The translations under genes and the position numbers were made by a program. This document shows, one piece after another, positions 1-39,308 of a stretch of 39,308 nt of DNA. The DNA is taken from positions 1-39,308 of IMG/VR virus record IMGVR_UViG_3300045988_099729. One strand, written 5' to 3'. The notes beneath the pieces were generated by a model. It was not told where the DNA came from. It did not search any database and saw nothing but the letters and a program-made list of their open reading frames with translations. Within the stretch, counting starts at the first letter, position 1, and each line of letters begins with the position of its first letter. The stretch is from a virus.

Positions 1-63
1 TAATTGCATTTCATCTAAAACCGGTTGCATTCTTCGCAATACATCCATTATTTTCGCTTCCAT
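1..63 (-). CDS. 5' end (21 codons, MEAKIMDVLRRMQPVLDEMQL) of an unidentified gene truncated by the window edge; mirror copy of 39246..39308
   Basis: ATG at 63..61 on the minus strand, preceded by AAGGAG (75..70) with a 6-nt spacer. The frame stays open to the window edge and is identical to the right-end copy. Confidence 0.4.
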   Translation of the reverse strand, partial: MEAKIMDVLRRMQPVLDEMQL

Positions 64-119
64 ACATTGCTCCTTTTTTGCTTTCAGTATATCAACTGGC
101 GTACTGAATTAAGTAGCAA
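1..119. repeat. Left arm of a perfect 119-bp terminal inverted repeat (partner 39190..39308)
   Basis: The reverse complement of 39190..39308 is identical to 1..119. Identity ends at position 120 (a versus t), which is 16 nt into the 19-bp fibre core site. Confidence 0.97.
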
Positions 120-122
120 ATT
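104..122 (+). repeat. Fibre crossover core site sC (ctgaattaagtagcaaatt, 18/19 match to the active-gene core)
   Basis: Direct comparison with 38485..38503. The codon phase is the same, encoding (T)ELSSKL. Confidence 0.85.
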
Positions 123-435
123 AAAAAATGCAGAGACAACAATGAGCAATAATTTAAAAAGTTTACTGTCTGTAAAGCAGGTAACGGTAAAGAGTAATAT
201 AAACGTTGGCGCAGGAAAGGATTTTAATTGTTATTTAAAACCGCCTACAGTAAATGGCTACACACCTATTGGAGTAATCGGATATGATCTAGTTGGAGAT
301 TGGGATGTATGGGTAAATATCGTGTCCTGTTATTATAACAGTAGTAATGGTTTGCTTTACATAAAAGGACACAATTTCGGAACGGGAACATGTATTGCAT
401 TAGCGAATGTATTTGTTCTGTACAAAAAGAACTAA
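104..435 (+). CDS. Silent alternative tail-fibre C-terminal cassette C (about 110 aa, no start or RBS of its own)
   Basis: Begins with the in-frame core (TELSSKLKNAETT...). Upstream sequence is the antisense of the truncated gene at 1..63. The only upstream start in the ORF track is a TTG at 25. Stop at 433..435. Confidence 0.7.
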
Positions 436-436
436 A

Positions 437-828
437 TTATTTCCATTTTCCGATTATAAGCATATTACATTGTGAATAACACATTCCCTTTTTTACCGAA
501 TAAACTGTAAGTTTATATCCAGTTGTGCTTACTTCATTGACTCCTGTCCAGTATAGTTCATTTGTAGTTCCAGGAGATACTATAATCAATGGTGCTTCCT
601 TGAATGTGAATGGAAAATCTACAGCTTTACTAGAAACAAAATATAATCCATACCAATTTGTAGCAACGTCAGTACTCCATGTGTATTTACGCCATACAAC
701 TGCATCCCCATTAGAATATTTTATATAGTTGTATCCGTTCTTTGCTCCTCGCTCTACGATAGAAATCAGTTTATTGTTTATGGTTGCAATACTTTCGTTC
801 GATTTTGCCAAATTGCTATTTAGTTCAG
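437..828 (-). CDS. Silent alternative tail-fibre C-terminal cassette D (about 130 aa, no start of its own)
   Basis: The minus strand reads S-E-L-N-S-N-L-A-K-S-N-E-S... from the core at 828..810. An in-frame TAG (838..836) lies three codons upstream of the core. The ORF-track start at 811 is the TTG inside the core. The stop is 1 nt from the cassette C stop. Confidence 0.7.
810..828 (-). repeat. Fibre crossover core site sD (ctgaactaaatagcaattt on the minus strand, 17/19)
   Basis: Direct comparison with 38485..38503. It is inverted relative to the active-gene core and in the same codon phase. Confidence 0.8.
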
Positions 829-864
829 AATCCCTCTAAAAAGAAGAAAGGGGCAAACAGAAAA

Positions 865-1236
865 ATGAAAATCACATTCAATGATGGTCAGGAACTGCAG
901 ATCCAGCAGGTCACTGAACAGACGGATGGCGCACTTCTGATCAAGACCATTTCAGCATCCGAGGATCAGCTGAAGACTTTATTCTCTGATCGGACAACAA
1001 CTAAGAGAATGTCTGTGAGCGAACGGGATGTAGATACCGTTGTGTATGAAAATTACACGAAGCTTGATGCAATCGTGAAGTACACGGCCGGCATCCTTGG
1101 TGTGCTGATGTACCGGGAAGGAGAAGATCCGGACAGCCGGATAGCAGCTCTGGAGACACGACTTAAAAAAGCGGAGGAGAAAAATGAAATGCTCGAAGGA
1201 TGCATTTTGGAAATGTCTGAAATGGTATATCAGTAA
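865..1236 (+). CDS. Hypothetical tail-fibre-associated protein (123 aa)
   Basis: First ATG of ORF 784..1236. C-terminal coiled-coil-like stretch (RIAALETRLKKAEEKNEML). It occupies the XkdW-like slot between fibre genes. Confidence 0.6.
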   Translation: MKITFNDGQELQIQQVTEQTDGALLIKTISASEDQLKTLFSDRTTTKRMSVSERDVDTVVYENYTKLDAIVKYTAGILGVLMYREGEDPDSRIAALETRLKKAEEKNEMLEGCILEMSEMVYQ

Positions 1237-1300
1237 AACGATAATTGTATTAACCATTTTATTTTTATTCATATTATTACAAATTTCAGGAGGAAAAGAA

Positions 1301-1438
1301 ATGATGGCAATGTTATGGGCGCAGCAGATCATGTTAGGAAAGAAAACTTATTCACAGGTACCGAGACTTTTAAAGGACAAGGTAAAAGAGATCCTGATTG
1401 ATTCCGGAACAGAAGAACTTGTAACAGAGGAGCAGTAG
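1301..1438 (+). CDS. Small XkdX-like protein (45 aa)
   Basis: AGGAGGA at 1288..1294 and ATG at 1301. Its size and position directly before a fibre gene match XkdX-type small proteins of Firmicutes phages. Confidence 0.5.
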   Translation: MMAMLWAQQIMLGKKTYSQVPRLLKDKVKEILIDSGTEELVTEEQ

Positions 1439-1439
1439 T

Positions 1440-4091
1440 ATGGACAATATCGTATCCTGCAAATTAGATTCCAGATACGCATCCACGCTAGGGATATGGC
1501 AGTATGATTACGGTCAGGTGCTCCGGATCACAGGTCCGGAGCTTCCACCGGCAGTGGAAGTGCAGTTTTCGCTGGACGAGAAATTAGGAGAGACATTATC
1601 CAGAGTCGGCACGACGGTAGACGGAGTTACAGAGGTAAAGATTCCGGATGAATTACTGAAACACAGTGCGACAAGTAATTACCGGATCTATGCTTATATC
1701 TATCTGACAGATGAGACTTCAGGAAACACCAAATATGAAATTACAATCCCGGTCAGGGTACGTAGTAAGCCAACCTCTCCGGCGGAAGATCCAGAGACGG
1801 ATCCGGATCTCTTTAGGGAGACAGTAGTAGCGGTCAATGCATCTGCTGAACGAGCTGAGAATGCTGCAAGCTCTGCGATGGAAAGTGCAGCATCGGCAGA
1901 TGAGACACTGGCAGAGATCAAACGTGTTGCAGATGGTATTTCGGGAAATATCGAGAACGCCAACACAATGAAGTCTGAGCTCTCTGATATGATCAACAAT
2001 GCAGGGATAGAGAAGAAAGAGCTGGAATCATCAATTGGAAAAGCCGGAGAAGCTAAGATGGCATTAGACAGCTCCATTAGATCCGCTGGAGAGAAGCAGT
2101 TAGCGTTAGACACCACGGTAGAACATGCGAATACAGTAGACGCATCGTTGAAAGAGCATATAGGTAGTGCTGAGCAAATACAGGCAAATGTTGAGCAGAT
2201 TGCGAACAATAAAGAGGATATTGGTTCACTACAGGAAGAGTTAGGTGATATAGAATCAAAATTTGAGATTGAAACCGAAGCTTTTTCTAATAAATGTTCA
2301 ATTATTAGAAATAACACACCTAACAATTTCACAGGAAATCAAATAACGGGCGTAAAACAATATTTTGATTTTGGTGAAAACGCAGCACTAACAAAAATAA
2401 AGATGAATATTAAAGCATCTAATGACGATACTGTCGCTTTAGAAATCGCCACTCTTGATGGCAATATTATAGCAACAGCAGAAAAGGCGGTTACAACAGA
2501 ATATACAGATGTTGTGTTTGATTTAGAGAATATTGTTATTAAAGAACCTGTTTCAGTATTTGTATATACAAAAGGAACCAATTTACTGTCATATGGTTTA
2601 TATGCAACGCCATATGACGATCAATCATTTTCGTATATTTTTCCTGATGGTACAAGGAAATCAGCATTTAAGATTGGTACATCAGAAATACTAAAACCCA
2701 CAGCATCAAATAATAAGCAATGCTTAGTTTTGTTCTTTGATTATACATCTAAGATCATAAAGAATATCTCTGATTCCATTTCACAAAATATTGATACAAC
2801 TTTGTTGAAAAGTGGAAAAGCCGCAGACGCTAAAGTAGTTGGAGATAAATTAAGTAAACTAAAGGAAGATTTATCCAACAAAATCACAAAGTTCTATGCA
2901 TCGAATCAGGGCGAAACTCATCTGGCAGATTCTGACAATGGGAAAATCATGGATATGATGCTGTATGGACGGAGCGAACAGAAGCAGTATCGTGGCATAA
3001 ATTTAATTCCTCCTAACATTAAATATGGAGGCTTTGTAGAAGTTTCGATTCCAAAAGGGACAAAAGTTTTTGCGATTACAGATGGAACAAGTGTTATGGG
3101 TGGTAACTTCCGTTTTTTTAATGCAGATAAAACAGAAAATATGTGGTTCGGAATAGACCAAGGTGTTACTATTGCGACAACTATATTAAAAATTGATGCT
3201 AAATATGTGCAGAATCTTATATCACCCGTTTTCGATTTATCAAAAATATGTTTAGGTATTGGAAATGAACCAATATATGAACCCTATGTTGGAGGTCAGC
3301 CATCCCCATCACCAGATTATCCGCAGGAGATAAAAAGAGTGGTGAATCCTACAGTTAAAGTAACAAATGAAGATGGGTTAAAGGTTCAATCTGTTACACT
3401 TAACAATATCACCCTTAACGCAATATCAGTCTCAAGTGGTGGTAACGTCACAATCGACGGAAAGCAGTATATTGCGGATAGAGTTGTGGAAAAAGACGGT
3501 GTATTTGGCATCGAAAGAAATATTCGAGAAATCCATACGAATACAAAAACTATGAATAACAGCGAGGAGTATCCTGGATGGAAAAAAGTAGAAGGCATAT
3601 CTGATGTTGTATATTACAATGTGGATCCCGTAGGAGACTCCAGAAAACTTACTTTTATATCTAATTTTACAAAGGATAGTTTTTTGCAAAATAATAAAGG
3701 AACAAATAATATCTTGTACTTTATAAAGAATATTATTGGTTATTCACAATCTGAATTGATTGCTAAAGCAATAGATGTAGATATGTATATCAGATTGCAA
3801 GATGCTATATTTGAGCCTCTTCCGGGGGATATACAAGCTAAATTGCGAACCCTTGTCACTAACTACCCAGTAACCAACATCTCCGTCACATCCGACCAGT
3901 TAGACGGATATACAGTATTTAACTATCCAATCTCTCTTGCTGATGGTTGGAACTATGTGAAACAGCAGATTAACGACAACCGTGATTACATCTATAACAT
4001 GGACGCACGTACTCAGGACACCGATTTACAGGTGGCAGAAGCCTATGTGAACAGTGAGTACGCAGTAGCACTTGCAGAATTGGAGGTATGA
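1440..4091 (+). CDS. Large tail fibre / receptor-binding protein with a BppU-N-like N-terminus, coiled-coil shaft and AT-rich distal domains (883 aa)
   Basis: The N-terminus (WQYDYGQVLRITG...YAYIYLTDE...ITIPVRVRSKP) resembles the baseplate-upper-protein Ig-like domain. A long Ala/Glu/Ser-rich heptad region follows. The motif GKAADAKVVGDKL is common in phage fibres. Confidence 0.8.
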   Translation: MDNIVSCKLDSRYASTLGIWQYDYGQVLRITGPELPPAVEVQFSLDEKLGETLSRVGTTVDGVTEVKIPDELLKHSATSNYRIYAYIYLTDETSGNTKYEITIPVRVRSKPTSPAEDPETDPDLFRETVVAVNASAERAENAASSAMESAASADETLAEIKRVADGISGNIENANTMKSELSDMINNAGIEKKELESSIGKAGEAKMALDSSIRSAGEKQLALDTTVEHANTVDASLKEHIGSAEQIQANVEQIANNKEDIGSLQEELGDIESKFEIETEAFSNKCSIIRNNTPNNFTGNQITGVKQYFDFGENAALTKIKMNIKASNDDTVALEIATLDGNIIATAEKAVTTEYTDVVFDLENIVIKEPVSVFVYTKGTNLLSYGLYATPYDDQSFSYIFPDGTRKSAFKIGTSEILKPTASNNKQCLVLFFDYTSKIIKNISDSISQNIDTTLLKSGKAADAKVVGDKLSKLKEDLSNKITKFYASNQGETHLADSDNGKIMDMMLYGRSEQKQYRGINLIPPNIKYGGFVEVSIPKGTKVFAITDGTSVMGGNFRFFNADKTENMWFGIDQGVTIATTILKIDAKYVQNLISPVFDLSKICLGIGNEPIYEPYVGGQPSPSPDYPQEIKRVVNPTVKVTNEDGLKVQSVTLNNITLNAISVSSGGNVTIDGKQYIADRVVEKDGVFGIERNIREIHTNTKTMNNSEEYPGWKKVEGISDVVYYNVDPVGDSRKLTFISNFTKDSFLQNNKGTNNILYFIKNIIGYSQSELIAKAIDVDMYIRLQDAIFEPLPGDIQAKLRTLVTNYPVTNISVTSDQLDGYTVFNYPISLADGWNYVKQQINDNRDYIYNMDARTQDTDLQVAEAYVNSEYAVALAELEV

Positions 4092-4093
4092 TT

Positions 4094-4258
4094 ATGTTAT
4101 ACAAGACACTGAAAAAATTAAAGGAAAGAAACGGTCTGACAGAAGATCTGAAGAACAAGATTGACATTTTCTTCGCCACGGGCAGGATTACTGAGGAACA
4201 GTATAATGATCTGATGGATGTTAATAAGGAAGAAGAGCCGAAAGCGGAAAATAATTAA
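4094..4258 (+). CDS. XkdX-family small protein (54 aa); too short for the ORF track
   Basis: ATG at 4094, 2 nt after the fibre stop. MLYKTLKKLKERNGLTEDLKNKIDIFFATGRITEEQYNDLM... matches the typical XkdX pattern (G-x-IT-x-E-x-Y). Confidence 0.6.
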   Translation: MLYKTLKKLKERNGLTEDLKNKIDIFFATGRITEEQYNDLMDVNKEEEPKAENN

Positions 4259-4303
4259 CTAAAGGGGAGCTTTAACAGATTAATCAATTACAGAAGCGAT
4301 CAT

Positions 4304-4501
4304 ATGGAAATACTTGCAAGACTGAGAGGTTTTATTTTGCAGATACAAATAACACCATCCGAAATCCAATCCTACCAAGAATTAACTACTTATGCCGGAA
4401 CAACGATTGTGGAGAGCGATGCAGAATGCTACATGGAAGTCTCTGCCGGTGGTGGAGACACATTAAGAGCCAAGAAGCTGGCACTGCTCCTGGGAGATTA
4501 A
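4304..4501 (+). CDS. Hypothetical 65-aa ORF, possibly a fibre-gene remnant
   Basis: No clear RBS. ITPSEIQSYQELTTYAGTTIVESD resembles LPGDIQAKLRTLVTNYPVTNISVTSD near the C-terminus of the 883-aa fibre. Confidence 0.3.
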   Translation: MEILARLRGFILQIQITPSEIQSYQELTTYAGTTIVESDAECYMEVSAGGGDTLRAKKLALLLGD

Positions 4502-4503
4502 TC

Positions 4504-4532
4504 TTGGAAAACTTCTCCTTCTACTGTATAAT
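4504..4532 (+). promoter_or_regulatory. Sigma-70-like promoter of the moron gene (TTGGAA-17 nt-TATAAT)
   Basis: -35 at 4504..4509 and a perfect -10 at 4527..4532, 25 nt upstream of the RBS/ATG at 4558. Confidence 0.5.
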
Positions 4533-4557
4533 GACAGTGGAAGGAGAGGTTAATAAT

Positions 4558-5280
4558 ATGGATTATAAAGAGATGAAAATACGTCCTATAAATAGCAAAA
4601 AGGATGCTATTATTTTTTTGAATCAAATGATTGTTTTGACAGATAAAAGAATGACTAGATTAAAAAACGCAATTAACGATACTGAAAAACTATTAAGAAA
4701 ATATACTGAAAAAAATAAAATAGAAACTGCTATTTATCAATCGTATGCGGAAAGAATAGAATGTTTAACAATGTATTTATGTAATATATTTGCAGATGAA
4801 ACTAAAAATGCAGTATCGTATAGGCAGTTTAGAAAAGTAATTGATAAAAAGTATGAAAAAGGAAATGACGAGTTTAAGCTTGAACCGTTAGAAAAAGACA
4901 TACTTAAATCATTAGATCAAATGAGAGAACAAAGGAATTGGGGGCATCACATTCCGCAATCGCTTTTAGCAAGCCAAGAAAATTTTATGGTTAATGAGCA
5001 AAATGTGAGCCAAGAACTATTTGATGGATTGTTTTCAGATTATGAAGTATACGTTTCTATATGGGAGTATCATGATATTGAATGGCTTGTTGATTTATAC
5101 GTTTCGTCCCAAAGTGCATATAATGATTACAGAAAAATCTTTCAACAAATGAAAAAAGATTATTCGTATTTGATAGGAAAACATATGAGAGTTAGTCGAA
5201 TAAAAGAGCCTAATCCAAGACCTTTTCGGTTTACGCAAATTTCAAAGGACTCTTTAAAAGCTAATTCGAAAAGAAGATAA
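4558..5280 (+). CDS. AT-rich moron protein (240 aa) with a HEPN-like R-N-x-x-x-H motif; candidate abortive-infection/defence RNase
   Basis: GGAAGGAGAGG RBS and ATG at 4558. Motif LDQMREQRNWGHH (RNWGHH at 4933..4950). Composition is visibly more AT-rich than neighbouring genes. It has its own promoter and terminator. Confidence 0.75.
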   Translation: MDYKEMKIRPINSKKDAIIFLNQMIVLTDKRMTRLKNAINDTEKLLRKYTEKNKIETAIYQSYAERIECLTMYLCNIFADETKNAVSYRQFRKVIDKKYEKGNDEFKLEPLEKDILKSLDQMREQRNWGHHIPQSLLASQENFMVNEQNVSQELFDGLFSDYEVYVSIWEYHDIEWLVDLYVSSQSAYNDYRKIFQQMKKDYSYLIGKHMRVSRIKEPNPRPFRFTQISKDSLKANSKRR

Positions 5281-7286: not shown

Positions 7287-7338
7287 GTCTTGTACTAACT
7301 AAACTACCCCAAACGGAGTCAACCAGTTAGTACAAGAC
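7287..7338. repeat. 13-bp perfect inverted repeat separated by 26 nt, between the convergent endolysin and integrase genes; attP candidate or bidirectional terminator
   Basis: gtcttgtactaac (7287..7299) and gttagtacaagac (7326..7338), ending 1 nt from the integrase stop. Confidence 0.5.
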
Positions 7339-7339
7339 G

Positions 7340-8731
7340 CTATAAGAAATCAACAGAGTCAACGGTATGATCAGTATTCAGGTGAATCTTCCGGATAATG
7401 GAGTGCCAGAAAGCTCTGCGGTTTTCTTGGGTTAAATTGTAGTACATTGTTCTAAAGTCTGTATTCAGCAGATCTTCCAGATAAGCATAATCAGGTTCTA
7501 ATTCCGGAGCCGCATTTAACAATTCATTCAGATCGTTTTCAATCCGATCATATTCTTTGCTGTAATAATCCCATTCGATTCTTCCTTTCTGGAAGAGAAG
7601 ATTTAATCGTTCTAATTCTTTCTGGAGCTTTTCCGGAGTCTGGACTTTCTTCTTTTTTTCTTGTTCCTTTTCAATTTTTTCACATTTTATTTTAAATTTA
7701 TTGTATTCGTATTCCAGATGATCAATCAGGTATTGTTCTATGAGATTTTGACTTACCATGTGCTTGTATGTACATTTGTGATCAATAAAAGCTTTGTTGC
7801 ATCGGTAATAGCAGTATATTTTTTTGGCACCGGTTTTCCGGTTGATAATGGACGAACCGCCTCTTGCGCTAAGCCTGCGTCCACAGATCGGACAATTTAT
7901 CATGCCACTGAAAAGATAAATCCGGCCAGAAGGAGCACGCTTAACATTTGCGTTCTGTATTTCCTGCAGATTGTTCCATTCAGATTCTGTCAGGTAAGCA
8001 GGGCAGTATGGAATCCCGCGATAGGTTCCTTTGTAAAATTCACTCGACAGCAGTGTTCGCATATTCGCCCATGTAAAATCCGGATCATAATTTTCCTGAA
8101 TATAGCGCATGGAAAGCCCTTTTGCATGGTGCTTAAAGAAAAAACGATAAAAGGCATTTACAGTGTCTTCTCGATCTGGATCTTTTACCATGCGTTTTAC
8201 TCCATCAATGATTCCGGATTTGTAGCCGTACCCCATATTCACATCACCGAAGATCAGCTTTCCCTGTCGGATAGATGCTTCGTTTACGAATTTGATACGT
8301 TCGCTGGTGGTATCCACTTCATTCTGGCCAATAGACAGGACTACATTCAGCTGCAACCGTCCATCCCTGGTTTCCATATTGATTCCTGGTTCACTGGTGC
8401 TGATCCAGCGGACGTTATTATTGTCGAGGACTTCTTGGACCTTATAAAAATCAGACAGGTTACGAAACCATCTATCAATCCGCCAGAAGATGATCACATC
8501 AATTTTTCCGGCTTTTACATCTTCGAGAAGTGAATGGATAGCTTTTCTCTTTTTTAATTCTTTACGGGCGGTTTTACCTTCATCCGCATAAACTCCAACA
8601 ATAGTCATGTTGTGCTCTTTGGCGTAATTGGTCAGGTACTGCTTTTGCGCTTCCAGGGATTTACCGTGCATCATCTGTTCAGCGGTAGACACACGGATGT
8701 AAATGGCGCAGCGTTCAATTTTACTTGGCAT
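7340..8731 (-). CDS. int: Large serine recombinase (phage integrase), 463 aa
   Basis: N-terminal resolvase motif CAIYIRVSTAEQ. Central recombinase domain, Cys-rich zinc ribbon (CPICGRRL...CYYRC...C) and C-terminal coiled coil (KEQEKKKKVQTPEKLQKELERL). Confidence 0.9.
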   Translation of the reverse strand: MPSKIERCAIYIRVSTAEQMMHGKSLEAQKQYLTNYAKEHNMTIVGVYADEGKTARKELKKRKAIHSLLEDVKAGKIDVIIFWRIDRWFRNLSDFYKVQEVLDNNNVRWISTSEPGINMETRDGRLQLNVVLSIGQNEVDTTSERIKFVNEASIRQGKLIFGDVNMGYGYKSGIIDGVKRMVKDPDREDTVNAFYRFFFKHHAKGLSMRYIQENYDPDFTWANMRTLLSSEFYKGTYRGIPYCPAYLTESEWNNLQEIQNANVKRAPSGRIYLFSGMINCPICGRRLSARGGSSIINRKTGAKKIYCYYRCNKAFIDHKCTYKHMVSQNLIEQYLIDHLEYEYNKFKIKCEKIEKEQEKKKKVQTPEKLQKELERLNLLFQKGRIEWDYYSKEYDRIENDLNELLNAAPELEPDYAYLEDLLNTDFRTMYYNLTQENRRAFWHSIIRKIHLNTDHTVDSVDFL

Positions 8732-8802
8732 ATTATATCACCTTTCTCTTCAATATACGTAAAAATGAGTATAAAAATAACAGCCTGAGAACTTTTGTTC
8801 TC

Positions 8803-8831
8803 TTGCGTGGCTGCTCCGGAGATGATACAAT
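8803..8831 (+). promoter_or_regulatory. Sigma-70-like promoter (TTGCGT-17 nt-TACAAT) driving the candidate small RNA
   Basis: -35 at 8803..8808 and -10 at 8826..8831. The palindrome gagaac-tttt-gttctc (8787..8802) abuts the -35. Confidence 0.45.
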
Positions 8832-8837
8832 ATTATT

Positions 8838-8933
8838 GCATTTGGGTATCTCTTCGGAGTACTTAATAGAGAAACATATTGGCGTATGTTTCATCGCTCG
8901 ACCGTTCCTGTTGGCGCAGGAGCGGTTTTTTTT
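8838..8933 (+). ncRNA. Candidate ~95-nt small RNA with two hairpins that both have the loop UUGGCG; the second is a rho-independent terminator
   Basis: Hairpin 1 is 8871..8878/8885..8892 (8 bp, perfect) with loop ttggcg. Hairpin 2 is 8902..8910/8917..8925 (9 bp, one G-U) with loop ttggcg, followed by T8 (8926..8933). There is no convincing ORF. Confidence 0.45.
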
Positions 8934-8935
8934 AT

Positions 8936-9481
8936 TTATTTCAGCAGATCGGCAATACGGATCTTTAAATCATTGTAGATTCCCACGCTGATTTCTTCAT
9001 CAAAAGAATATTGCGTAGAATCTTCTGGCTCACCAAAACAGTAGACTTGGACGATCCGTGTCATTGGATTGACAATCCAGTATTCGCGGACACCGGCTGT
9101 ACGGTACTTAAATAATTTTGTAAGGTAATCCATACGCTGGCTGCTTGGCGATACAATTTCAATGATGAAATCAGGAGCGCCGTTGCATCCTCTGTCGTTC
9201 ATTTTGCTTGGATCACATATTATGGAGATATCCGGCTCAACATAATTATAATTATCCTGATTAAGAAAAACAGCAAATGGAGCAGGATAAACCTCACAGG
9301 AACCACTATTTGATTTAATGTAGTTTCTGATGGTTGCAGATAATTCCATTACAAGTTTCTGATGCAATGGACTTGGTGGAGCCATATTGTAGATCTGACC
9401 ATCGATCAGCTCGGCACGCTGTCCATCTGGAAGAAGATAGATATCTTCAACTGTGTAAGTGTTTGGTTTTGGTAATGGCAT
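8936..9481 (-). CDS. Uma2-family (DUF820) putative endonuclease, 181 aa
   Basis: Typical Uma2 pattern: YTVEDIYLLPDGQRAELIDGQIY-MAPPSPLHQ ... EPDISII ... APDFIIEIVSPSS ... D...K...Y...GV-EYWIV. Confidence 0.8.
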   Translation of the reverse strand: MPLPKPNTYTVEDIYLLPDGQRAELIDGQIYNMAPPSPLHQKLVMELSATIRNYIKSNSGSCEVYPAPFAVFLNQDNYNYVEPDISIICDPSKMNDRGCNGAPDFIIEIVSPSSQRMDYLTKLFKYRTAGVREYWIVNPMTRIVQVYCFGEPEDSTQYSFDEEISVGIYNDLKIRIADLLK

Positions 9482-9519
9482 GTGATCACGTCCTTTCTGA
9501 AAATAAAATAAAGTTAATA

Positions 9520-11031
9520 TTATTCTAGTTCTTCGTCGTCTTCATCGGTATTAACGTAATTTTTTGAATAGTTTTCAGTAGTTGATAAAGATTGACGGTA
9601 TTCTTCAGCTGCCATAGTTCGATTAAATTCGGCAGTTGGCTCTATTTCGGTGACTAATTCTTCCAATTCATCTATTGTAACGTTGAAGAATTCTTTTCTC
9701 ATGTTTACTTTGTTGACTCGCTTTTGATTTAACATTTCATGCAATTTGCTTTCTAATCCAACAGCATCATCAGAGAAAATAAAGCTGTGGACATCAAATT
9801 TAAATGGAACAGATGCATTACCCAATTCATCTACACGATCCTGAGGATTAAGTCTTCTTGTCATTCCGATTTTAAATACATTTTCACCAAATGAACCAAG
9901 ATTGCTAATAACATATACATTTCCCGCTTTTCCATTCGCAAGATTGGAAATTTCTTCTTTTTTGAGAACAACTTCAGATAATTGCGCTTGTAATTGAAGG
10001 ATTCGAGCATTAAGTTGTTCGATTTCAGACGAAGAGGCGGATTGCAACTGATTCTGTAACTTTTCTATTTCAGTATTATATTTAGATTCTTCTTTTTCTA
10101 CTTTCTTGCGCTCTGCTTCGAGAGCTTTGCGTTCTTGGGCTTCCTGTCGCATTTGCTCACGAATAGCAAGTTGCTCTTGGCGAGACTGTTCTTTTTTGAC
10201 GTAATAGTTATATTCTATTTTTACAGCATTGATAAAGAGATATTCTATTTCTCCGATGAATTTAGTTAATGTACCGGCTATGCTCTGATTTCCTTCAGCT
10301 GCAACTTTTAAGAATTTTTGAGTTACCTTTTTGACATCTCCAATAGATGTATCGAGTTTCTCATATTTGAGGTTATATAAAATATTCTGAAGCTCAGCTC
10401 GGAGAGCAATGACCATTAACTTATAAATAGCTTGATTGGCTTTTGTGGTATATCTGGCAGAATATTTTTGCAAAATAGAATCTATCTGCTTATCATTAAG
10501 TCTATAAGCTTTCTGTAAATCTTTTATATCCATGCAATGTAATTTTAATATAACAGACGGACTAATTTCTTCCAGTTCGGATAATTGATTTTCAGGAAAA
10601 CGAAGAGTGCTTTGCGAAGGCTCATAATTCAAGTATTTATCAAATGTGTAATTTATGGCTTTTACGAGTTCCTTAGATTTATTCAGTTTATTAGTTTGAG
10701 TTTTTACATTTTTGTTTAATTTTACCTCTTGAGAACGCAATTCCTCTAATTGGTTCAAAATATTTTGACATTCAGAATTTTTTTCAGCGATGGATTTATC
10801 GATGGAATCCAGATGCTTTTGGAAGTCTTCTTGAGCGGTTTGCTTTTTGGATTCATACTCACTTTTTAACTGCTCGGTCATGTCAAGAATTTTGTAATAA
10901 TCAAAAGCTCCTAATTCTTGGAGTTGTTGGTGCATATTTTGATTATCGTTAAGTAAGTTTTGATTTTCGTTTTTGAGTTGTTCGATTTCAGCTTTGAATT
11001 GCTTAATTTTAAAAATATCCCCTATTCCCAT
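9520..11031 (-). CDS. DUF4041-like coiled-coil protein with a C-terminal T5orf172/MUG113 (GIY-YIG-like) domain, 503 aa; candidate defence gene
   Basis: Long coiled-coil N-terminal and middle parts. The C-terminus is NVYVISNLGSFGENVFKIGMTRRLNPQDRVDELGNASVPFKFDVHSFIFSDDAVGLESKLHEML...KEFF. AAGGAG RBS. The gene is strongly AT-rich. Confidence 0.75.
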   Translation of the reverse strand: MGIGDIFKIKQFKAEIEQLKNENQNLLNDNQNMHQQLQELGAFDYYKILDMTEQLKSEYESKKQTAQEDFQKHLDSIDKSIAEKNSECQNILNQLEELRSQEVKLNKNVKTQTNKLNKSKELVKAINYTFDKYLNYEPSQSTLRFPENQLSELEEISPSVILKLHCMDIKDLQKAYRLNDKQIDSILQKYSARYTTKANQAIYKLMVIALRAELQNILYNLKYEKLDTSIGDVKKVTQKFLKVAAEGNQSIAGTLTKFIGEIEYLFINAVKIEYNYYVKKEQSRQEQLAIREQMRQEAQERKALEAERKKVEKEESKYNTEIEKLQNQLQSASSSEIEQLNARILQLQAQLSEVVLKKEEISNLANGKAGNVYVISNLGSFGENVFKIGMTRRLNPQDRVDELGNASVPFKFDVHSFIFSDDAVGLESKLHEMLNQKRVNKVNMRKEFFNVTIDELEELVTEIEPTAEFNRTMAAEEYRQSLSTTENYSKNYVNTDEDDEELE

Positions 11032-31956: not shown

Positions 31957-32454
31957 ATGGACCCAGAAAAGATGTTAGTAGGCAGACATAAGAAAGTAGC
32001 TTTTATGGATGCTGACGGTAAAGGAACAACATATACGAGAATGACTGGTTTTACATCACTGTCAGAGGGCAAAAACTCTATTGAGTACAGCCGTCAGTAT
32101 GTGGACGAAGCATCAGAAAGATCGGATGTAGTAGGCTATTCACCAGCCATCGACTACGAACTGGATAGATATACGAATGATCCGGTGCATGAAAAGATCG
32201 CAACAATTACAGATGATGAGATTGTTGGAACAGATGCACAGGTTAGCATTGTAGTAGTTGACCTCTTCGACCAGAAGACGTCCGAAACAACTTGTACAGC
32301 GCGTAAAAGATTGTGGAGTGTGATTCCGGACACAGAAGGTGACGGAACGGACGCGCTGATCTACAAAGGAAGTTTTAAAGCAGCAGGAGAAATTGTGAAA
32401 GGCACAGCTACCACCACAGACGGGTGGAAGACTTGTACTTTTTCAGAAGCATAG
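31957..32454 (+). CDS. Major tail protein
   Basis: AGGAGGAG RBS. 165 aa, in the canonical position before the chaperones and tape measure. Confidence 0.75.
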   Translation: MDPEKMLVGRHKKVAFMDADGKGTTYTRMTGFTSLSEGKNSIEYSRQYVDEASERSDVVGYSPAIDYELDRYTNDPVHEKIATITDDEIVGTDAQVSIVVVDLFDQKTSETTCTARKRLWSVIPDTEGDGTDALIYKGSFKAAGEIVKGTATTTDGWKTCTFSEA

Positions 32455-32476
32455 AATATAACAGGAGAGTGAGCCA

Positions 32477-32920
32477 ATGAGCCTTTGGAAATTTGGAGAT
32501 TTTGAAGCAGAAGTGGATTTCACGGATGCGGATTTTTTAGATGTGTTAGAGGAAGCAAAAGCAGAAATGTTTGAAGCAGGGAAAAAGGTTCCCATAACCG
32601 GAAAGCAGAGTGATATCATCCGCGCGCAGTGCGCGTGTTTTTATGTGTTCTTCGATACCCTGTTTGGCGAGGGAGCAGGGGAGCGGATCCTTTGCGGAAA
32701 GAACAGCATCAAGCTGTGTAACGAAGTGGCTGAATCATTGTTAGACTTTGAAACAGCAGAAACAAAGAAACTGGACGATAAATATGATAAGTATGCACCA
32801 AATCAAAATACAACGCAGCAGTTCCCGCATCCGCAGCCACAGCCAAATGGAAGCCGTCAGCAGAGAAGAAACTACCAGAAACAGTATGGTAAGGGAAAAT
32901 ATTCCAATACCGGAAGGTAG
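32477..32920 (+). CDS. Tail assembly chaperone (gpG-slot)
   Basis: Acidic N-terminal part and a Q/P-rich tail. Position immediately after the major tail gene. Confidence 0.6.
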   Translation: MSLWKFGDFEAEVDFTDADFLDVLEEAKAEMFEAGKKVPITGKQSDIIRAQCACFYVFFDTLFGEGAGERILCGKNSIKLCNEVAESLLDFETAETKKLDDKYDKYAPNQNTTQQFPHPQPQPNGSRQQRRNYQKQYGKGKYSNTGR

Positions 32921-32926
32921 CAGAGC

Positions 32927-33502
32927 ATGAATATTTTATATGAGCAGTTTCCGGAAGAAATCAAGGTGAACGGGGAGTACTACCCGATCGTGACAGATTT
33001 CCGTGAATGGATCCGTTTTACGGAGCTGGTTGAAGACGACTCGGTTCCGTGGCGGATCAAATGTGGACTTCTGTTGCAGTGGTATCTGGATCAGATTCCG
33101 GATGATATTGAAGTTGCAATATATGCACTCGGAGATTTCCTGATGTGCAAAAGGATGTACCAGGATGATCTGGAAGATAAAGAGGAAGAGCAGCAGAGAA
33201 GTGGAAAGCCGGTATTTTCTTTTTCGGAAGATGCCGGCTGCATTTATGCAGCGTTCCGGGAGGCATATGGAATTGACCTGCAGCAGATCGATTATATGCA
33301 CTGGTGGGAGTTCCGGAGCTTGTTTGACTGGTTGCCGGATGGTACAGAGATTAAACAACGGATTATGTATCGTTCGATTGATCCTGGAACAATCCGGGAC
33401 AAGGACGAACGTAAACGGATCAAGAAGATCCAGAGAGCTGTTGCACTGAAAAAGAAACAGCGAAAGCTTGATGATTATGAGATTGGAGATATGTTCTCAT
33501 GA
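32927..33502 (+). CDS. Phage Gp15-family protein (second chaperone-slot gene)
   Basis: EIKVNGEYYPIVTDFREWIRF...IDYMHWWEFRSLF is the typical Gp15 family pattern. Confidence 0.7.
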   Translation: MNILYEQFPEEIKVNGEYYPIVTDFREWIRFTELVEDDSVPWRIKCGLLLQWYLDQIPDDIEVAIYALGDFLMCKRMYQDDLEDKEEEQQRSGKPVFSFSEDAGCIYAAFREAYGIDLQQIDYMHWWEFRSLFDWLPDGTEIKQRIMYRSIDPGTIRDKDERKRIKKIQRAVALKKKQRKLDDYEIGDMFS

Positions 33503-33654
33503 TGGAAATTAAAATACCGACACGGCGTGAGTGGTATCCGTGTCCGTACTGCGGTCAGCATCTGCTTGTTTACGCAGATACTGCAGTGTGCAGCGGACTG
33601 TATGTAAAATGCCGCAAATGCCGACGGGAGGTGGAGATAAAAATTAAGAATTAA
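33499..33654 (+). CDS. 51-aa Cys-rich zinc-ribbon protein (Cys_rich_KTR-like); too short for the ORF track
   Basis: ATGATG overlaps the upstream stop. Sequence MMEIKIPTRREWYPCPYCGQHLLVYADTAVCSGLYVKCRKCRREVEIKIKN (CxxC ... CxxC). Confidence 0.55.
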   Translation: MMEIKIPTRREWYPCPYCGQHLLVYADTAVCSGLYVKCRKCRREVEIKIKN

Positions 33655-33698
33655 GCACTTGTGAGCCCCTGAGCCGTGCTATCAGAAAGGATGATAGT

Positions 33699-36233
33699 AT
33701 GGCAGATGGATATTTGAATTTTGATACCAAAATCAATGAGAGTGGGTTCAATGAAGGCATAAATAAGCTTGGAAGTCTTGGAAAAAGTGGCTTATCTGTA
33801 GTCAGCAAGGCAATGACCGGAGCTGTTGCAGCTGTAGGAACTGGAGCAGCGGCGATTGTAAAGTCTTCTCTTGGTGTAGTCGCCAATATGGAGCAGCAGG
33901 TCGGTGGTGTAGAGACACTATTTAAAGATAGTGCCAAGACAGTGATCAGGAACGCAAACAATGCGTTCAAAACAGCACAGCTTTCTGCTAATGATTACAT
34001 GTCAACGGTTACAAGCTTTTCAGCATCATTACTACAGGGCTTAGGCGGAGATACTGCAAAGGCTGCAGAGATTGCAGATATGGCAATCATCGACATGGCA
34101 GATAATGCCAATAAGATGGGTACGAATATGCAGGATATCCAGAATGCCTATCAAGGTTTTGCAAAGCAGAATTATACAATGCTGGATAACCTTAAATTAG
34201 GTTACGGCGGTACACAGTCGGAAATGATCCGATTGATCAATGATTCCGGTATCTTAAATGAAAAAATAGAAGATCTGGATAATGTAACGTTTGACCAGAT
34301 GATTCAGGCAATTCACAAAGTCCAGCAAAATCTCGGAATCACAGGAACTTCCGCAAAAGAAGCCTCTACAACGATAGAAGGTTCTGTTAATTCTGCTAAA
34401 GCCGCCTGGGAAAATTTTGAAGCCGGTGTAATCAGTGCGGACGACCTGGTTGACACATTCTGGACAGCGGCAAAGAATATCTTAAATAATCTTGGTCAAA
34501 TGATCCCGCGTCTGGGAAAGACCGGAATGGATGTGGTGGAATCCTTATCCGGAAAAATCGGTGAAGCGGTTCCGCAATTAAAGGGATTTACAGATAGTGT
34601 CGGAAAATTAGCAGATAAGTTAAAGAACATGAGCACGGATGAGCTCATGAATCTTGGCAAGACTGCAGCAGTGCTTGCAGGAGCCGGACCGGCGATCTCA
34701 TTATTCGGATCACAGATCGGTAATGTACAGTCAGCCGTATCCGGATTCAGCGGACTTACAACTGGTGTTTTATCTGAACTTGGAAAGCTTCCAAAGGGAT
34801 TCAAAAGTGCAACAAAATCGGCTGCAAATTTCCGGAAAGATTTTACGGGTAGCCTGAAAGGGCTCGGCAGTGCAGTTACGGGACCATTTCAGGTACTGAC
34901 TCCGAAATTGTCAGCTACTGTCGGAAAAATCGGCAAGGTAGTTTCCGGTGTCCCAGGTAAAATCGGAGGGGCAGTTGGAAAGATCGGTTCTGCAATCGCA
35001 TCAAAAATCCCCAGAATTACAAGCACGTTTTCACTACTTGGAGATACTGCCGGTTATCTGGGAGCATGGGGCGGACAGGTTGGTTCTGCTCTGCAGGGAG
35101 TTCTTGGAACAGTAGCCGGCTTTATTCCGTCGTTTGTAGGGTTGATGAATTTCGGTGCAGTTGCAGCCGTTGTGGTAGCCGGTCTTGGACTGGTTTACAG
35201 TCAGTTTGGTACACAGATTGACCAGATCCTGCTTCTGGCGCAGACCAAAGGACCGGAGATCATATATAACTTTGGAGCAGGAATCACAGCAGCACTTCCG
35301 GGACTGATTTCATCAGGTGCAACCCTGATCTTGGGATTGATGAATGCGATTACGGCAAATCTACCATCGCTCATTTCCGTAGGCGCAAGCATCATAGCAA
35401 CTCTGGTAAGCAGCCTGGGCGCACAACTTCCGCAGTTAATTCCGGTAGCGGTACAGATGATCCTGACTCTGGTTGAGTCGCTGATCAGTAATCTTCCGCA
35501 GTTAATAACTTCCGGATTACAGTTAATGGAAGGCTTGGCACAGGGAATTGCAAACGCGATTCCGCAGGTGGCAGCGAAAGCACCGGTTATCATCGGCAAG
35601 CTGGCATCTACGATTATCACGAATTTGCCGAAGATCATACAGACTGGTGTGAAGATTATCACGCAGCTCGCAGTCGGACTGGTTCAGGGAATCCCGGCGT
35701 TACTTGGTAAGATTCCATCCATGATCAGCCAGATCAAAAATGCATTTACCAGTGTAAACTGGGGCAGTGTTGGTATGAACATTGTCCGGGGAATTGCAAG
35801 TGGATTAACAAGTGCGGCAAAAAGCCTGGCAGAAGCAGCTGCAAACGCGGCGGATAATGCACTCAATTGGGTGAAATCAAAACTTGGTATTCATTCTCCA
35901 TCGAGAGTATTCCGGGACCAGGTTGGTAAGATGATGGCTCTTGGTATGGGAAGCGGATTTGAGAAGAATATTCCGGTCGGATCCATGAATGCCGGAGTAC
36001 AAAAAGCAGTCCAGAGTCTGCAAAGAAGTGTGCAGCTTACAACATCCGTTAATCCGGATAAAACGGTAGGCGGAATAAAGAATAATCCGATCTTTAAGGA
36101 TCAAGGATTTGATTACGACAGATTTGAACGTATCCAGAGGAAGATTGCAAAAGAAAATGGCAATAAGCCGGTATTCCTGGATACGAAACGGATAGACAGA
36201 CCATTACCGAAAGGAGCAGTGCCACAGGTATGA
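33699..36233 (+). CDS. Tape measure protein (844 aa)
   Basis: Size, position, and a long Gly/Ala/Ser/Ile/Leu-rich hydrophobic central region. Confidence 0.9.
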   Translation: MADGYLNFDTKINESGFNEGINKLGSLGKSGLSVVSKAMTGAVAAVGTGAAAIVKSSLGVVANMEQQVGGVETLFKDSAKTVIRNANNAFKTAQLSANDYMSTVTSFSASLLQGLGGDTAKAAEIADMAIIDMADNANKMGTNMQDIQNAYQGFAKQNYTMLDNLKLGYGGTQSEMIRLINDSGILNEKIEDLDNVTFDQMIQAIHKVQQNLGITGTSAKEASTTIEGSVNSAKAAWENFEAGVISADDLVDTFWTAAKNILNNLGQMIPRLGKTGMDVVESLSGKIGEAVPQLKGFTDSVGKLADKLKNMSTDELMNLGKTAAVLAGAGPAISLFGSQIGNVQSAVSGFSGLTTGVLSELGKLPKGFKSATKSAANFRKDFTGSLKGLGSAVTGPFQVLTPKLSATVGKIGKVVSGVPGKIGGAVGKIGSAIASKIPRITSTFSLLGDTAGYLGAWGGQVGSALQGVLGTVAGFIPSFVGLMNFGAVAAVVVAGLGLVYSQFGTQIDQILLLAQTKGPEIIYNFGAGITAALPGLISSGATLILGLMNAITANLPSLISVGASIIATLVSSLGAQLPQLIPVAVQMILTLVESLISNLPQLITSGLQLMEGLAQGIANAIPQVAAKAPVIIGKLASTIITNLPKIIQTGVKIITQLAVGLVQGIPALLGKIPSMISQIKNAFTSVNWGSVGMNIVRGIASGLTSAAKSLAEAAANAADNALNWVKSKLGIHSPSRVFRDQVGKMMALGMGSGFEKNIPVGSMNAGVQKAVQSLQRSVQLTTSVNPDKTVGGIKNNPIFKDQGFDYDRFERIQRKIAKENGNKPVFLDTKRIDRPLPKGAVPQV

Positions 36234-37012
36234 TTGTATATTATGAAAATATGAATGGCGAAAAGCTGAATCTTTTGAAAGCTCCTTTTCGTACAACGAA
36301 GACTGACTGGTTCGATGCGGACTGGTCAGAGTCTTCGGACGGATATGAAAAAACAGTGACGATTGATGTGTTTGGAAAGCGGGAAGAATTTCAGGCGAAT
36401 ATGGAGCAGCTATACCGGATCATTGCGGTTGATGCAGAAAATGATACCTACGGGAAACTGTACGTGAATGGTGCATATTTAAGATGCAAGGTGTTGAAGT
36501 CAGCGAAAGAAGGATGGAAGGGATATGTGTATTCGGAAGTGGAGATCACCTTCCAGGCTCCAGAGCTTGTATGGGTAGTAGAAGCGACAAGACAGTTTTT
36601 TCCACAATTGGAAGAAACGGCAGCATCCGGAATCGACTTTCAGTATGACTATCCGTTTGATTTTGCCGGAGAAAAAAGAGGAATCGCAGCATGGAATGTT
36701 GATCACATCATTCCAAGCGAGTACCGGATGATCATTTACGGACCATGTGTAAATCCGAAGATTCTGATCAACGATTATCCTTATGAGTTTTTCGTAACGC
36801 TTGAAAGCAGGGAATATCTGATCATAGATAGCCAGAGAAGAACGATCCGAAGGTATTTGACGAATGGAACGGTACAAAATTTATTTAATCAGAGAGCGCA
36901 GAAACAAACTGTTTTCAAGAGAATACCATCCGGGCTTTTAAATATTAACTGGTCCGGGGATTATGGATTTGACCTGACTTTATTTTTGAACAGGAGGGAG
37001 CCGCCGTGGTAA
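36230..37012 (+). CDS. Distal tail protein (Dit-slot)
   Basis: ATGA overlap with the tape measure stop. 260 aa. Confidence 0.7.
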   Translation: MIVYYENMNGEKLNLLKAPFRTTKTDWFDADWSESSDGYEKTVTIDVFGKREEFQANMEQLYRIIAVDAENDTYGKLYVNGAYLRCKVLKSAKEGWKGYVYSEVEITFQAPELVWVVEATRQFFPQLEETAASGIDFQYDYPFDFAGEKRGIAAWNVDHIIPSEYRMIIYGPCVNPKILINDYPYEFFVTLESREYLIIDSQRRTIRRYLTNGTVQNLFNQRAQKQTVFKRIPSGLLNINWSGDYGFDLTLFLNRREPPW

Positions 37013-38004
37013 AGGACATAATTCTTGCAGATAGTGCTGGAAGAGAACTTGGAGCGATTTTGGACTCAAATATCACAGTGGATACGAATGGCGAGTACGA
37101 ATTTTCTGTACAGATTGCAAGGTCGAACTGGTATCCGGAGCTGACCTTTTCAAGCTATGTGTATATTACGGATACGGAATACGGAGGCATTATCGGAGAG
37201 GTGCTGACAGATACAACGCTGGATTATGTGGAGCTGAAGGGAATCACATGGCGGGGAAGACTGCAGTATAAGGTGATTGAACCGCCTACCGGATCTGACT
37301 ACAAAACGATATCCGGCGAACTGAATCAGGTAATGAAAACACTGATCGAGCCGGAGTTTGATGGATTATTCAGAGTTTCATCAGAAGATACGGGTATATC
37401 TGTAAAGAATTTTCAATTTGACCGGTACTGTACATTACTGGAAGGTCTTACCAAAATGCTGAAAAGTGTTGGATACCGCCTGCAGATCCGGTTGATCAAA
37501 GAACAGGATGAACCATGTTATATTCTGATTGAAGCAGTTCCGATTACTGATTATTCTGCGCAGATTGAATTGTCACAGGACAGTCGAATGAATTTCACGA
37601 TGGATGATAAACAAAATGGCGTAAATCATCTGGTCGTAACCGGAAAAGGGGAAATGCAGGAGAGGAACATATTCCATCTGTATGTGCAGAAAGATGGAAG
37701 CATTGGAAAGACGCAGTATTACAAAGGACTGAATGAGATCTCAGCAGTATATGAAAATACGAGCACAGAAACAGCAGAGCTGGAGAAAACGTCCGTGGAA
37801 CAATTGCAGAAGCTGATGAATAAAAAGACATTTCAGATGGATGTTGCAAAGCTTGGAATCGAGGTTGGGATTGGAGATATTGTCGGTGGCAGGGATTACC
37901 TGACTGGGCTGTATATGTCAAAACCAATCGAAAATATCATTTATGAGATTACGAATGATGTGGAATCAATTACTTATAAACTGGAAGGAGAAGATGAAGA
38001 ATGA
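37006..38004 (+). CDS. Tal-slot protein (Sipho_Gp37-like), GTG start
   Basis: 332 aa, directly after Dit. N-terminus DIILADSAGRELGAILDS...EYEFSVQIA. Confidence 0.65.
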   Translation: MVKDIILADSAGRELGAILDSNITVDTNGEYEFSVQIARSNWYPELTFSSYVYITDTEYGGIIGEVLTDTTLDYVELKGITWRGRLQYKVIEPPTGSDYKTISGELNQVMKTLIEPEFDGLFRVSSEDTGISVKNFQFDRYCTLLEGLTKMLKSVGYRLQIRLIKEQDEPCYILIEAVPITDYSAQIELSQDSRMNFTMDDKQNGVNHLVVTGKGEMQERNIFHLYVQKDGSIGKTQYYKGLNEISAVYENTSTETAELEKTSVEQLQKLMNKKTFQMDVAKLGIEVGIGDIVGGRDYLTGLYMSKPIENIIYEITNDVESITYKLEGEDEE

Positions 38005-38843: not shown

Positions 38844-39205
38844 TTAGCTAAAATAAGCCGTTGTTGCAATCATTACGAATGAGGCACTATCTGTACCGAC
38901 GATATATACTCCACCATTTTTTATGTATATACGTGCTTGTGTTCCAGCAGGTCCACCATTATGCGTAGCTATTGGAATAAGGCACTCAAAATCGCCATAA
39001 CCATTTGGTGTCATTCCTGACGGGACACTGCCGAGAGCCTGATCGTTTGCAAATTTCCCACCATCTAAAAATCTTATCGATCCAGAAACAAATACCACAT
39101 GACCTATTTTGCGGAATTTTAGCTTTTCTGAAAGATTATTTGCATTAGTCATATATTTCCAACCAGAATCAGCAGTTGCCGTTTTCAAATTGCTACTTAA
39201 TTCAG
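38844..39205 (-). CDS. Silent alternative tail-fibre C-terminal cassette B (about 115 aa, no start of its own)
   Basis: The minus strand reads TELSSNLKTATADSGWKY... from the core. Its stop codon abuts the cassette A stop with 0 nt between them (palindrome agctaattagct, 38838..38849). Confidence 0.7.
39187..39205 (-). repeat. Fibre crossover core site sB (inverted, 19/19 to sA)
   Basis: aaattgctacttaattcag on the + strand is the exact reverse complement of 38485..38503. Confidence 0.85.
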
Positions 39206-39308
39206 TACGCCAGTTGATATACTGAAAGCAAAAAAGGAGCAATGTATGGAAGCGAAAATAATGGATGTATTGCGAAGAATGCAACCGGTTTTAGATGAAA
39301 TGCAATTA
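39190..39308. repeat. Right arm of the 119-bp terminal inverted repeat
   Basis: Exact reverse complement of 1..119. Confidence 0.97.
39246..39308 (+). CDS. 5' end (21 codons) of an unidentified gene running off the window; possible fibre-switch recombinase
   Basis: AAGGAG at 39234..39239, 6-nt spacer, ATG at 39246. MEAKIMDVLRRMQPVLDEMQL stays open to the window end, 40 nt beyond core sB. Confidence 0.4.
   Translation, partial: MEAKIMDVLRRMQPVLDEMQL

Follow-up and report, generated by a model that had tools for sequence, protein, structure and literature searches.

The stretch of viral DNA analysed here (IMG/VR record IMGVR_UViG_3300045988_099729, positions 1 to 39,308; hereafter the window, 39,308 nt) carries within its first 864 nt two reading frames, C and D, that face each other stop to stop, and a similar pair, A and B, close to its right end. 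A preliminary description had proposed that these are storage cassettes, read only after fusion to another gene, and not decayed paralogues. We find it very likely that C and D belong, as two of four 3' cassettes, to a shufflon, a system of multiple site-specific inversions that switches the receptor-binding tip of a phage tail protein. The kind of system is already known, but its site, recombinase lineage and layout differ from those of its closest known counterpart, the Rin shufflon, with which it is compared below.

The system is built on a 16-nt core, CTGAAYTAARTAGCAA, which occurs four times in the window (104 and 38485 on the plus strand, 828 and 39205 on the minus strand), where 0.01 copies would be expected. 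The two plus-strand and two minus-strand sites bound exchangeable segments. All four are in frame, read ..S-E-L-S/N-S-N/K-L.. and are followed by 109-129 open codons, in agreement with the earlier statement that all four cassettes are fully open; judged from base composition, a frame would stay open by chance over 109 codons with a probability of 1.3e-3 and over 129 codons with one of 3.9e-4. One site (38485-38503, plus strand, flank F1; hexamer TAGCAA at 38495-38500) lies inside the expressed gene for a 280-amino acid (aa) tail protein (38001-38843, plus strand), which consists of a constant part (38001-38484), the site and cassette A (38487-38843). The silent cassette B (38844-39203, minus strand) has 119 codons and a TAA (38846-38844), converges with A without a spacer and is preceded by a site at 39187-39205 (minus strand, flank F2) whose sequence repeats 38485-38503 perfectly in inverted orientation. 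At the left end of the window, the silent 3' cassette C (106-435, plus strand; 109 codons and a TAA at 433-435) follows a site at 104-122 (plus strand, core CTGAATTAAGTAGCAA; TAGCAA, the hexamer inferred to contain the crossover, at 114-119), and the silent 3' cassette D (437-826, minus strand; 129 codons and a TAA at 439-437) follows a site at 810-828 (minus strand, core CTGAACTAAATAGCAA, TAGCAA at 818-813). A single base (436) separates the stops of C and D, and the stop of A (38841-38843) abuts that of B (38846-38844), so that every coordinate given earlier for this packing was confirmed. The palindrome at the A/B junction, AGCTAATTAGCT (38838-38849), results from the ending Ser(AGC)-TAA that the two cassettes share and from the lack of a spacer between them. 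Relatives retain the C-terminal residues of A and B (IPVS and AYFS, each directly before the stop), and the palindrome has no evident function. On the outer side of D's site lies flank F4 (829-864), which contains the ribosome-binding site of the next gene and an in-frame TAG; this TAG closes D's frame three codons ahead of the core's Glu codon, at the position (838-836, minus strand) previously reported.

None of the silent cassettes B, C and D has a credible pair of ribosome-binding site and start codon, whereas adjacent genes have AGGAG-type sites. For C, the earlier view that the cassette is start-less stands in so far as no start has a ribosome-binding site, but it overlooked an in-frame ATG (142-144, codon 13), at which gene callers place a 97-aa open reading frame (ORF), and a TTG at 25 to which the frame is open upstream; both are without a ribosome-binding site. 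For D, the TTG within the core, described before as the only candidate, is the first in-frame start (811-809) and has no Shine-Dalgarno-like motif, but later in-frame starts exist, and a TTG at codon 80 has AAGGA ahead of it. The more general claim that expression signals are lacking is qualified by this AAGGA in D. In simple scans, neither promoter-like nor terminator-like sites were more numerous than in shuffled sequence, a result that neither shows nor excludes internal promoters. No terminator was found between the convergent cassettes by a simple scan, which fits the need of the late transcript to cross the shufflon to the downstream genes. The packing of the cassettes stop to stop can be understood if only the cassette beside the constant part is translated, since the others can then do without a promoter, ribosome-binding site, start or terminator of their own.

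The same cassettes shuffle among all positions. We collected related loci by pattern- and protein-based scans (71 loci) and by exact-protein look-up (8 more), and classed sites by their outer flank (F1-F4) and cassettes by protein clustering; the metagenome scan was keyed on F1, so this flank is over-sampled in the counts. There are at least 13 cassette types (A-M), which form the fixed convergent pairs A/B, C/D, D/E, F/G, H/J and K/I. Types A-G, the common ones, occur behind each of the four flanks, and rarer types at fewer positions. Cassette C, for example, occurs six times behind F1, and hence fused to the constant part, five times behind F2 and once each behind F3 and F4, and the corresponding counts for D are 10 (again fused to the constant part), 3, 4 and 5. 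In the canonical order, present in loci L072 and L035, the upstream half consists of the constant part (F1), a plus-strand site, convergent A/B, a minus-strand site, F2 and the recombinase gene, and the downstream half of F3, a plus-strand site, convergent C/D, a minus-strand site, F4 and a 123-aa gene. The whole block can be inverted: L035 has A/B, recombinase and C/D, and L026 and L033 have D/C, recombinase and B/A. In L046, it is the recombinase segment that is flipped. Flank F3, which is not in the window (L072 8262-8331), has AAAGGAGGG immediately ahead of its site, and its frame is open from a GTG approximately 20 codons upstream, so that a cassette placed there is called as a 156-aa ORF in databases. 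Additional junctions lie at the ends of contigs whose tail protein is 100% identical to that of the window, namely constant part-D in L076, F3-A in L073 and F4-B in both L074 and L077. At each of these contig ends, the alleles at the two variable core positions are those that go with the flank and not with the cassette. The constant part-D junction in an otherwise identical phage indicates that inversion is probably ongoing, and switching may well take place within a phage lineage on short time scales.

Where the strands are exchanged could be narrowed down by predicting, position by position over 116 sites, the bases of the site from the flank or from the cassette. Up to core position 10, the flank predicts every position; at the variable core positions, knowing the flank raises the accuracy from 0.70 to 0.94 (position 6) and from 0.73 to 0.92 (position 10). 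From position 17 onwards, the cassette predicts every variable position and the flank has no predictive power, and core positions 11-16 (TAGCAA) are invariant over the 116 sites. As the site is flank-linked on the left, cassette-linked on the right and invariant in between, strand exchange must fall inside this 6-bp block, which is not palindromic, or at its edges, and 6 bp is the typical size of the overlap region of tyrosine recombinases. The site is asymmetric, with a left arm that is conserved at all sites and a loose right arm (TTTAnnAAA), and this asymmetry is shared with the sfx and rix sites of the R64 and Rin shufflons.

The gene that begins at 39246-39308 of the window, and antisense at 63-1, encodes in relatives a 329-aa tyrosine recombinase with Phage_integrase and SAM_4 (core-binding) domains (E 7e-34) and no arm-binding domain. 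It is closest to XerA/XerC models and matches XerA in the PDB (4a8e, E 8e-29); the alignment with XerA/XerD covers the core-binding and catalytic domains, and R186, H276, R279, H302 and Y311 align with catalytic residues. The gene is bordered by sites on both sides, and the protein is 98.5-100% identical in 23 loci (L072 and 22 others) that differ in cassettes and constant parts. In ~25 loci it is oriented along the late genes, and it is flipped in L046, in L079 and at the left junction of the window. From these comparisons, the 329-aa protein is in all likelihood the catalyst of the shuffling. A 37%-identical homologue is encoded in the tail-lysis region of Terrisporobacter phage TPELB_ph1 (L081, PP197244; 3824-4819), between the tail genes and the holin and separate from the integrase of that phage; no convincing inverted site pair was found near it.

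How the window came to end at the shufflon can be seen from its termini. Positions 1-119 are the perfect reverse complement of 39190-39308, i.e. a 119-nt terminal inverted repeat, and the identity does not reach beyond the final base that the cores have in common. The right copy contains the recombinase 5' flank and the first 21 codons of the gene (39206-39308, plus strand; AAGGAG at 39234-39239, ATG at 39246). The left copy is flank F2 in inverted form (1-103, minus strand, duplicating 39206-39308), with recombinase codons 1-21 at 63-1 (start codon 63-61) and the ribosome-binding site of the gene; a tblastn search of the window matched recombinase residues 1-21 at both 63-1 and 39246-39308. 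Contig L072 (ENA ERZ27230000, k119_109631) is 100% identical to the window over 32001-39308 (7,308 nt) and 99.98% identical over 104-4615 (4,512 nt), and between these two stretches it has 1,023 extra nt (7309-8331) that comprise the rest of the recombinase gene and flank F3. On this comparison, the window is a phage genome opened inside the recombinase segment at the shufflon, with the recombinase itself missing, and the terminal inverted repeat represents a contig break at a branching junction and no genome end. The repeat is 119 nt long, and 119 is also the k-mer size given in the names of the MEGAHIT contigs (k119_) with the identical phage. A k-mer of F2 plus core that continues in the reads into both B and C would yield a contig with this k-mer at both ends in opposite orientation, which is how we infer that the repeat arose. 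The left end of the window would then show the isomer with the recombinase segment flipped. The F2-with-C junction seen there is also present in other contigs, e.g. L026, and the reciprocal junction, between an F3-like flank and B, is present in L079. The preliminary description had remarked that C is preceded only by the antisense of another gene's 5' end; this is true of the window but reflects the contig end. It had not noticed that positions 1-103 are an inverted duplicate, that the recombinase is absent from the window, or that this is a multiple-inversion system of a known kind.

Counting only cassettes of related loci that do not run off a contig, 117 of 125 keep their frame, and open frames of at least 90 codons are as common among silent cassettes (67/72, 93%) as among expressed ones (50/53, 94%). 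The ratio of nonsynonymous to synonymous substitution rates (dN/dS) across cassette homologues, which had been put forward as a check, is 0.12 for C, 0.18 for D, 0.18 for A and 0.43 for B, with the same outcome from silent copies alone, and shows purifying selection. The small beta-rich heads predicted previously for all four cassettes are found again, for C and D, in AlphaFold models, each with a helix followed by a small beta-sandwich. In the model of D (predicted local distance difference test score, pLDDT, 90.1), a helix (residues 2-22) leads into a lectin-like beta-sandwich; in the PDB, D has matches to the fibre tips of R1/R2 pyocins and to H-type lectins (E 3e-4, template modelling (TM) score about 0.5), and in BFVD to many C-termini of phage tail-fibre and receptor-binding proteins (E 6e-9, TM score up to 0.77). 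A further match of D is to the C-terminal end of PHROG 2712, a tail-fibre family (E 4e-10). The model of C (pLDDT 89.7) has a helix (2-20) and a six-strand sandwich. Sequence searches of the PDB with D, the 280-aa protein and a constant-domain profile gave nothing meaningful, and Pfam and NCBIfam have no family for the 280-aa protein. Since the site is located at the start of the helix, the protein would have a helical neck with an exchangeable head, the design expected of a trimeric receptor-binding protein; the protein is thus presumably a trimer, and the different cassette tips presumably bind different receptors. With in-frame fusions, intact silent copies, low dN/dS and folded models all at hand, the proposal that these are storage cassettes read only after fusion has held up.

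These data also bear on what else C and D might be. If they were decaying paralogues, debris from the duplication of a tail-gene 3' end, their lack of start signals of their own and the truncation of 5 of the 72 silent copies in relatives would be expected; yet silent cassettes are as intact as expressed ones, dN/dS is 0.12-0.18 even in silent-only comparisons, in-frame fusions of these very cassettes to the constant part exist, both C and D give confident folded models, and among the truncated copies are some at expressed positions and some from low-coverage contigs, all of which makes decay hardly credible. Could they instead be independent small genes for tip or chaperone proteins, like Mu U and U', translated from ATG 142 and TTG 811? 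Gene callers and NCBI do annotate ORFs of 97 aa and 124 aa there, and C, which is oriented like the late operon, would be transcribed. Still, neither start has a ribosome-binding site while the neighbouring genes have AGGAG-type ones, both starts cut into the predicted N-terminal helix, whose first residues are those of the shared site, fusions that keep the frame exist for identical cassettes and, for D, the TAG closes the frame just outside the site. We therefore regard independent genes as very unlikely. A diversity-generating retroelement was set aside on the variation pattern alone, which consists of discrete unrelated cassettes at fixed sites.

As for the catalyst, the cassettes might be exchanged by another enzyme, such as the 463-aa serine recombinase, or by host RecA, with the tyrosine recombinase employed otherwise. 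The existence of two-cassette loci that lack the tyrosine recombinase and yet have both orientations (L001, L014) would agree with this, as would Dorea relatives that have an inverted site pair and no nearby recombinase homologue. For RecA, however, the shared core of 16-19 nt is too short for efficient exchange. The serine recombinase, the only other recombinase in the window (7340-8731, 30 kb away), has the domain set of an integrase (Resolvase domain and zinc ribbon), and crossovers fall within one 6-bp interval that resembles a tyrosine-recombinase overlap; moreover, the tyrosine recombinase gene is flanked by sites on both sides and its product is 98.5-100% conserved. Exchange by another enzyme or by RecA is very unlikely. 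A further alternative takes the terminal inverted repeat for the real ends of a linear genome, with cassette pairs at two ends and C partnerless by design. The repeat is indeed perfect over 119 nt, but it stops at the last shared core base and has the length expected from MEGAHIT k119_ contigs, and the phage has a serine integrase and is a Lachnospiraceae prophage. L072 joins both ends through 1,023 nt and is otherwise identical in sequence, and we reject real termini as exceedingly improbable.

Several observations nevertheless weigh against the shufflon interpretation. Isomer mixtures are deduced from contig ends and contig comparisons and not from reads, and some contigs are possibly chimeric paths through the assembly graph or derive from co-occurring strains. 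The window has only codons 1-21 of the recombinase, in two copies, and the activity and site specificity of the enzyme are predictions. The fold of C has no significant match in the PDB (best E 0.048, with weak matches to pyocin-fibre tips), and B is less constrained than the other cassettes (dN/dS 0.43). Finally, 11 loci have two cassettes and no recombinase (F1:x, y:F4; L001, L002, L014, L025, L032, L038, L040, L041, L043, L074 and L077), and direct sites might be expected to lose the DNA that they enclose. The A/B pair occurs in these loci in both orientations, e.g. A, B in L001 and B, A in L014. Such loci may have arisen by deletion between direct sites, which would lock the phage, or may be chimeric paths of the assembly through a mixture of isomers.

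For the shufflon that we favour, the proposed mechanism is as follows. The sites sit in frame at what would be the start of the helical neck (Ser-Glu-Leu-Ser/Asn-Ser-Asn/Lys-Leu), and the recombinase would exchange strands within the TAGCAA of two inverted sites. Inversion would flip one cassette pair, the recombinase segment or the whole block, and would lead to four alternative proteins; by breadth-first enumeration, 16 isomers are possible, with four expressed variants. The locus thus has what defines a shufflon in the broad sense, i.e. at least three sites in both orientations, cassettes that keep the frame, a recombinase at the locus (in L072 and 22 other loci) and observed isomers (at the contig level). 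A more far-reaching proposal, which we consider rather doubtful, is that Lachnospiraceae phages of the human gut harbour a distinct and highly abundant lineage of shufflons that invert their own recombinase gene; the orientation of this gene relative to the late operon could set its expression and make the system self-limiting, direct-site excision would remove the recombinase along with one cassette pair and generate locked two-cassette phages, and a different tyrosine recombinase and site would have been captured at the same junction of a receptor-binding-protein scaffold that is shared with actinobacterial Rin.

The Rin shufflon was reported in Bifidobacterium prophages (Mavrich et al. 2018, PMC6109161) and in Eggerthella lenta prophages (PMC8778435). 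Like the present system, Rin is phage-encoded and combines a constant N-terminal receptor-binding-protein gene with several start-less 3' cassettes (PMC6109161). Both systems also have a short asymmetric site ahead of each cassette and a tyrosine recombinase without an arm-binding domain, XerD-like in the case of Rin. The 11-bp rix site, TTCCCTAACCC, is unrelated to CTGAAYTAARTAGCAA, and rix-like TTCCSTAACCC has no match in the window at up to one mismatch. Rin cassettes are arranged in a row and the recombinase lies at the edge, whereas here the cassettes form convergent stop-to-stop pairs and the recombinase is located between the pairs and is invertible. The hosts are Actinomycetota there and Lachnospiraceae (Bacillota) here. 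The constant domain is homologous to a protein of Bifidobacterium phage PMBT6 (26-27% identity, E 3e-17), which stands in for Rin Rc, and the in-gene site is at the same relative position in both proteins (approximately residue 166 in PMBT6, residues 162-168 here). With the PMBT6 recombinase standing in for Rin, the catalytic motif alone aligns with the recombinase of the present system (E 0.017). In PMBT6 itself (L080, MK932884; 3989-6385), TTCCGTAACCC accompanies the homologous protein four times, thrice in direct and once in inverted orientation, and a tyrosine 'integrase' follows. Of the 11 positions of the published rix, this motif matches 10; one copy is inside the gene and the inverted one is beside the tyrosine recombinase, and judging from its sequence the locus looks like an unannotated Rin-type shufflon.

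Multi-cassette inversion of a tail-fibre gene has also been reported for BV01-like phages of Phocaeicola vulgatus, in a gut phage whose shufflon actively inverts the distal end of the gene next to a flanking recombinase, and for which all configurations were seen in populations (preprint, PMC13596623, 2026). Compared by description, that system differs in its motif (TGGGAGAACT), its three cassettes and six variants, the flanking position of its recombinase and the phylum of its host. In Gin/G of Mu, Cin/C of P1 and Min of p15B, inversion likewise joins a constant 5' tail-fibre part to alternative 3' parts; the G segment shares the convergent cassettes with the present system, and Min the multiple sites and many isomers. 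The purpose of Gin, Cin and Min is host-range switching. These are small serine invertases that act on 26-bp dyad sites (gix, cix) with a Fis-dependent enhancer, in contrast to the tyrosine recombinase here; no small (~190-aa) serine invertase of the Gin/Cin/Pin/Min kind is present at the locus. The site here has one conserved arm and a non-palindromic TAGCAA centre. The plasmid R64 shufflon (Rci, pilV), which has 19-bp sfx sites, shares the tyrosine recombinase, the multiple short asymmetric sites with one conserved arm and the in-frame exchange of C-terminal segments of an adhesin. By description, it differs in serving a plasmid pilus adhesin and in having rci outside the invertible block. 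Literature searches brought up no description of this system in Lachnospiraceae phages, a negative that does not prove its absence.

At NCBI, near-identical proteins bear the name Coprococcus comes, and the window stems from a temperate phage of Lachnospiraceae whose host is most likely this species. The family of the expressed protein comprises 5,766 database clusters and is very common in gut metagenomes. More distant constant domains (59-84% identity) are encoded in Dorea and Mediterraneibacter genomes, with no recombinase homologue within 6 kb. In two Dorea loci (L062, 6485/7334; L063, 6486/7258), there is a single inverted pair of a variant core, GAACTAAATAGTAAT, with ~800 nt between its members; these are possibly simpler two-cassette switches that are served in trans. 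The same system was not found in deposited phage records, in which the closest constant domains belong to unannotated faecal contigs, to Clostridium scindens phage phiCs5676-1 (40%) and to PMBT6.

Upstream of the shufflon, the phage has a tape-measure gene, a 260-aa gene and a gene for a 332-aa minor tail protein. The downstream boundary is formed by the conserved 123-aa gene (865-1236, plus strand); next come a CD1375/XkdX-like gene (1301-1438), a tail-fibre-like gene of 883 aa (1440-4091) and, further downstream, holin and endolysin genes. The 883-aa gene is a mosaic among relatives, with blocks of 77-98% identity broken by unrelated stretches, a pattern that suggests a second host-range determinant, probably diversifying by ordinary recombination. 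A lysogeny module on the minus strand (7340-11031) comprises three genes, which encode the 463-aa large serine recombinase, a nuclease of the Uma2 family (8936-9481) and a coiled-coil protein of 503 aa (9520-11031) whose C-terminus, by eye, resembles T5orf172/GIY-YIG-type domains. The nuclease and the 503-aa protein may be cargo or defence genes.

For sequence databases, the consequence is that inversion breaks assemblies and makes false terminal inverted repeats, which completeness tools may take as genome ends, and that it can remove the recombinase gene from a contig, as in the window. In addition, silent cassettes are commonly annotated as small hypothetical genes. The 16-nt core with its 6-bp crossover, together with the 329-aa arm-less recombinase, may serve as a DNA-inversion tool. 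For the phages themselves, tip switching would allow one prophage lineage to present four specificities, out of a pool of at least 13 across relatives, which is relevant for host-range prediction, for the inference of phage-host networks and for phage engineering directed at abundant gut Lachnospiraceae such as Coprococcus and Dorea.

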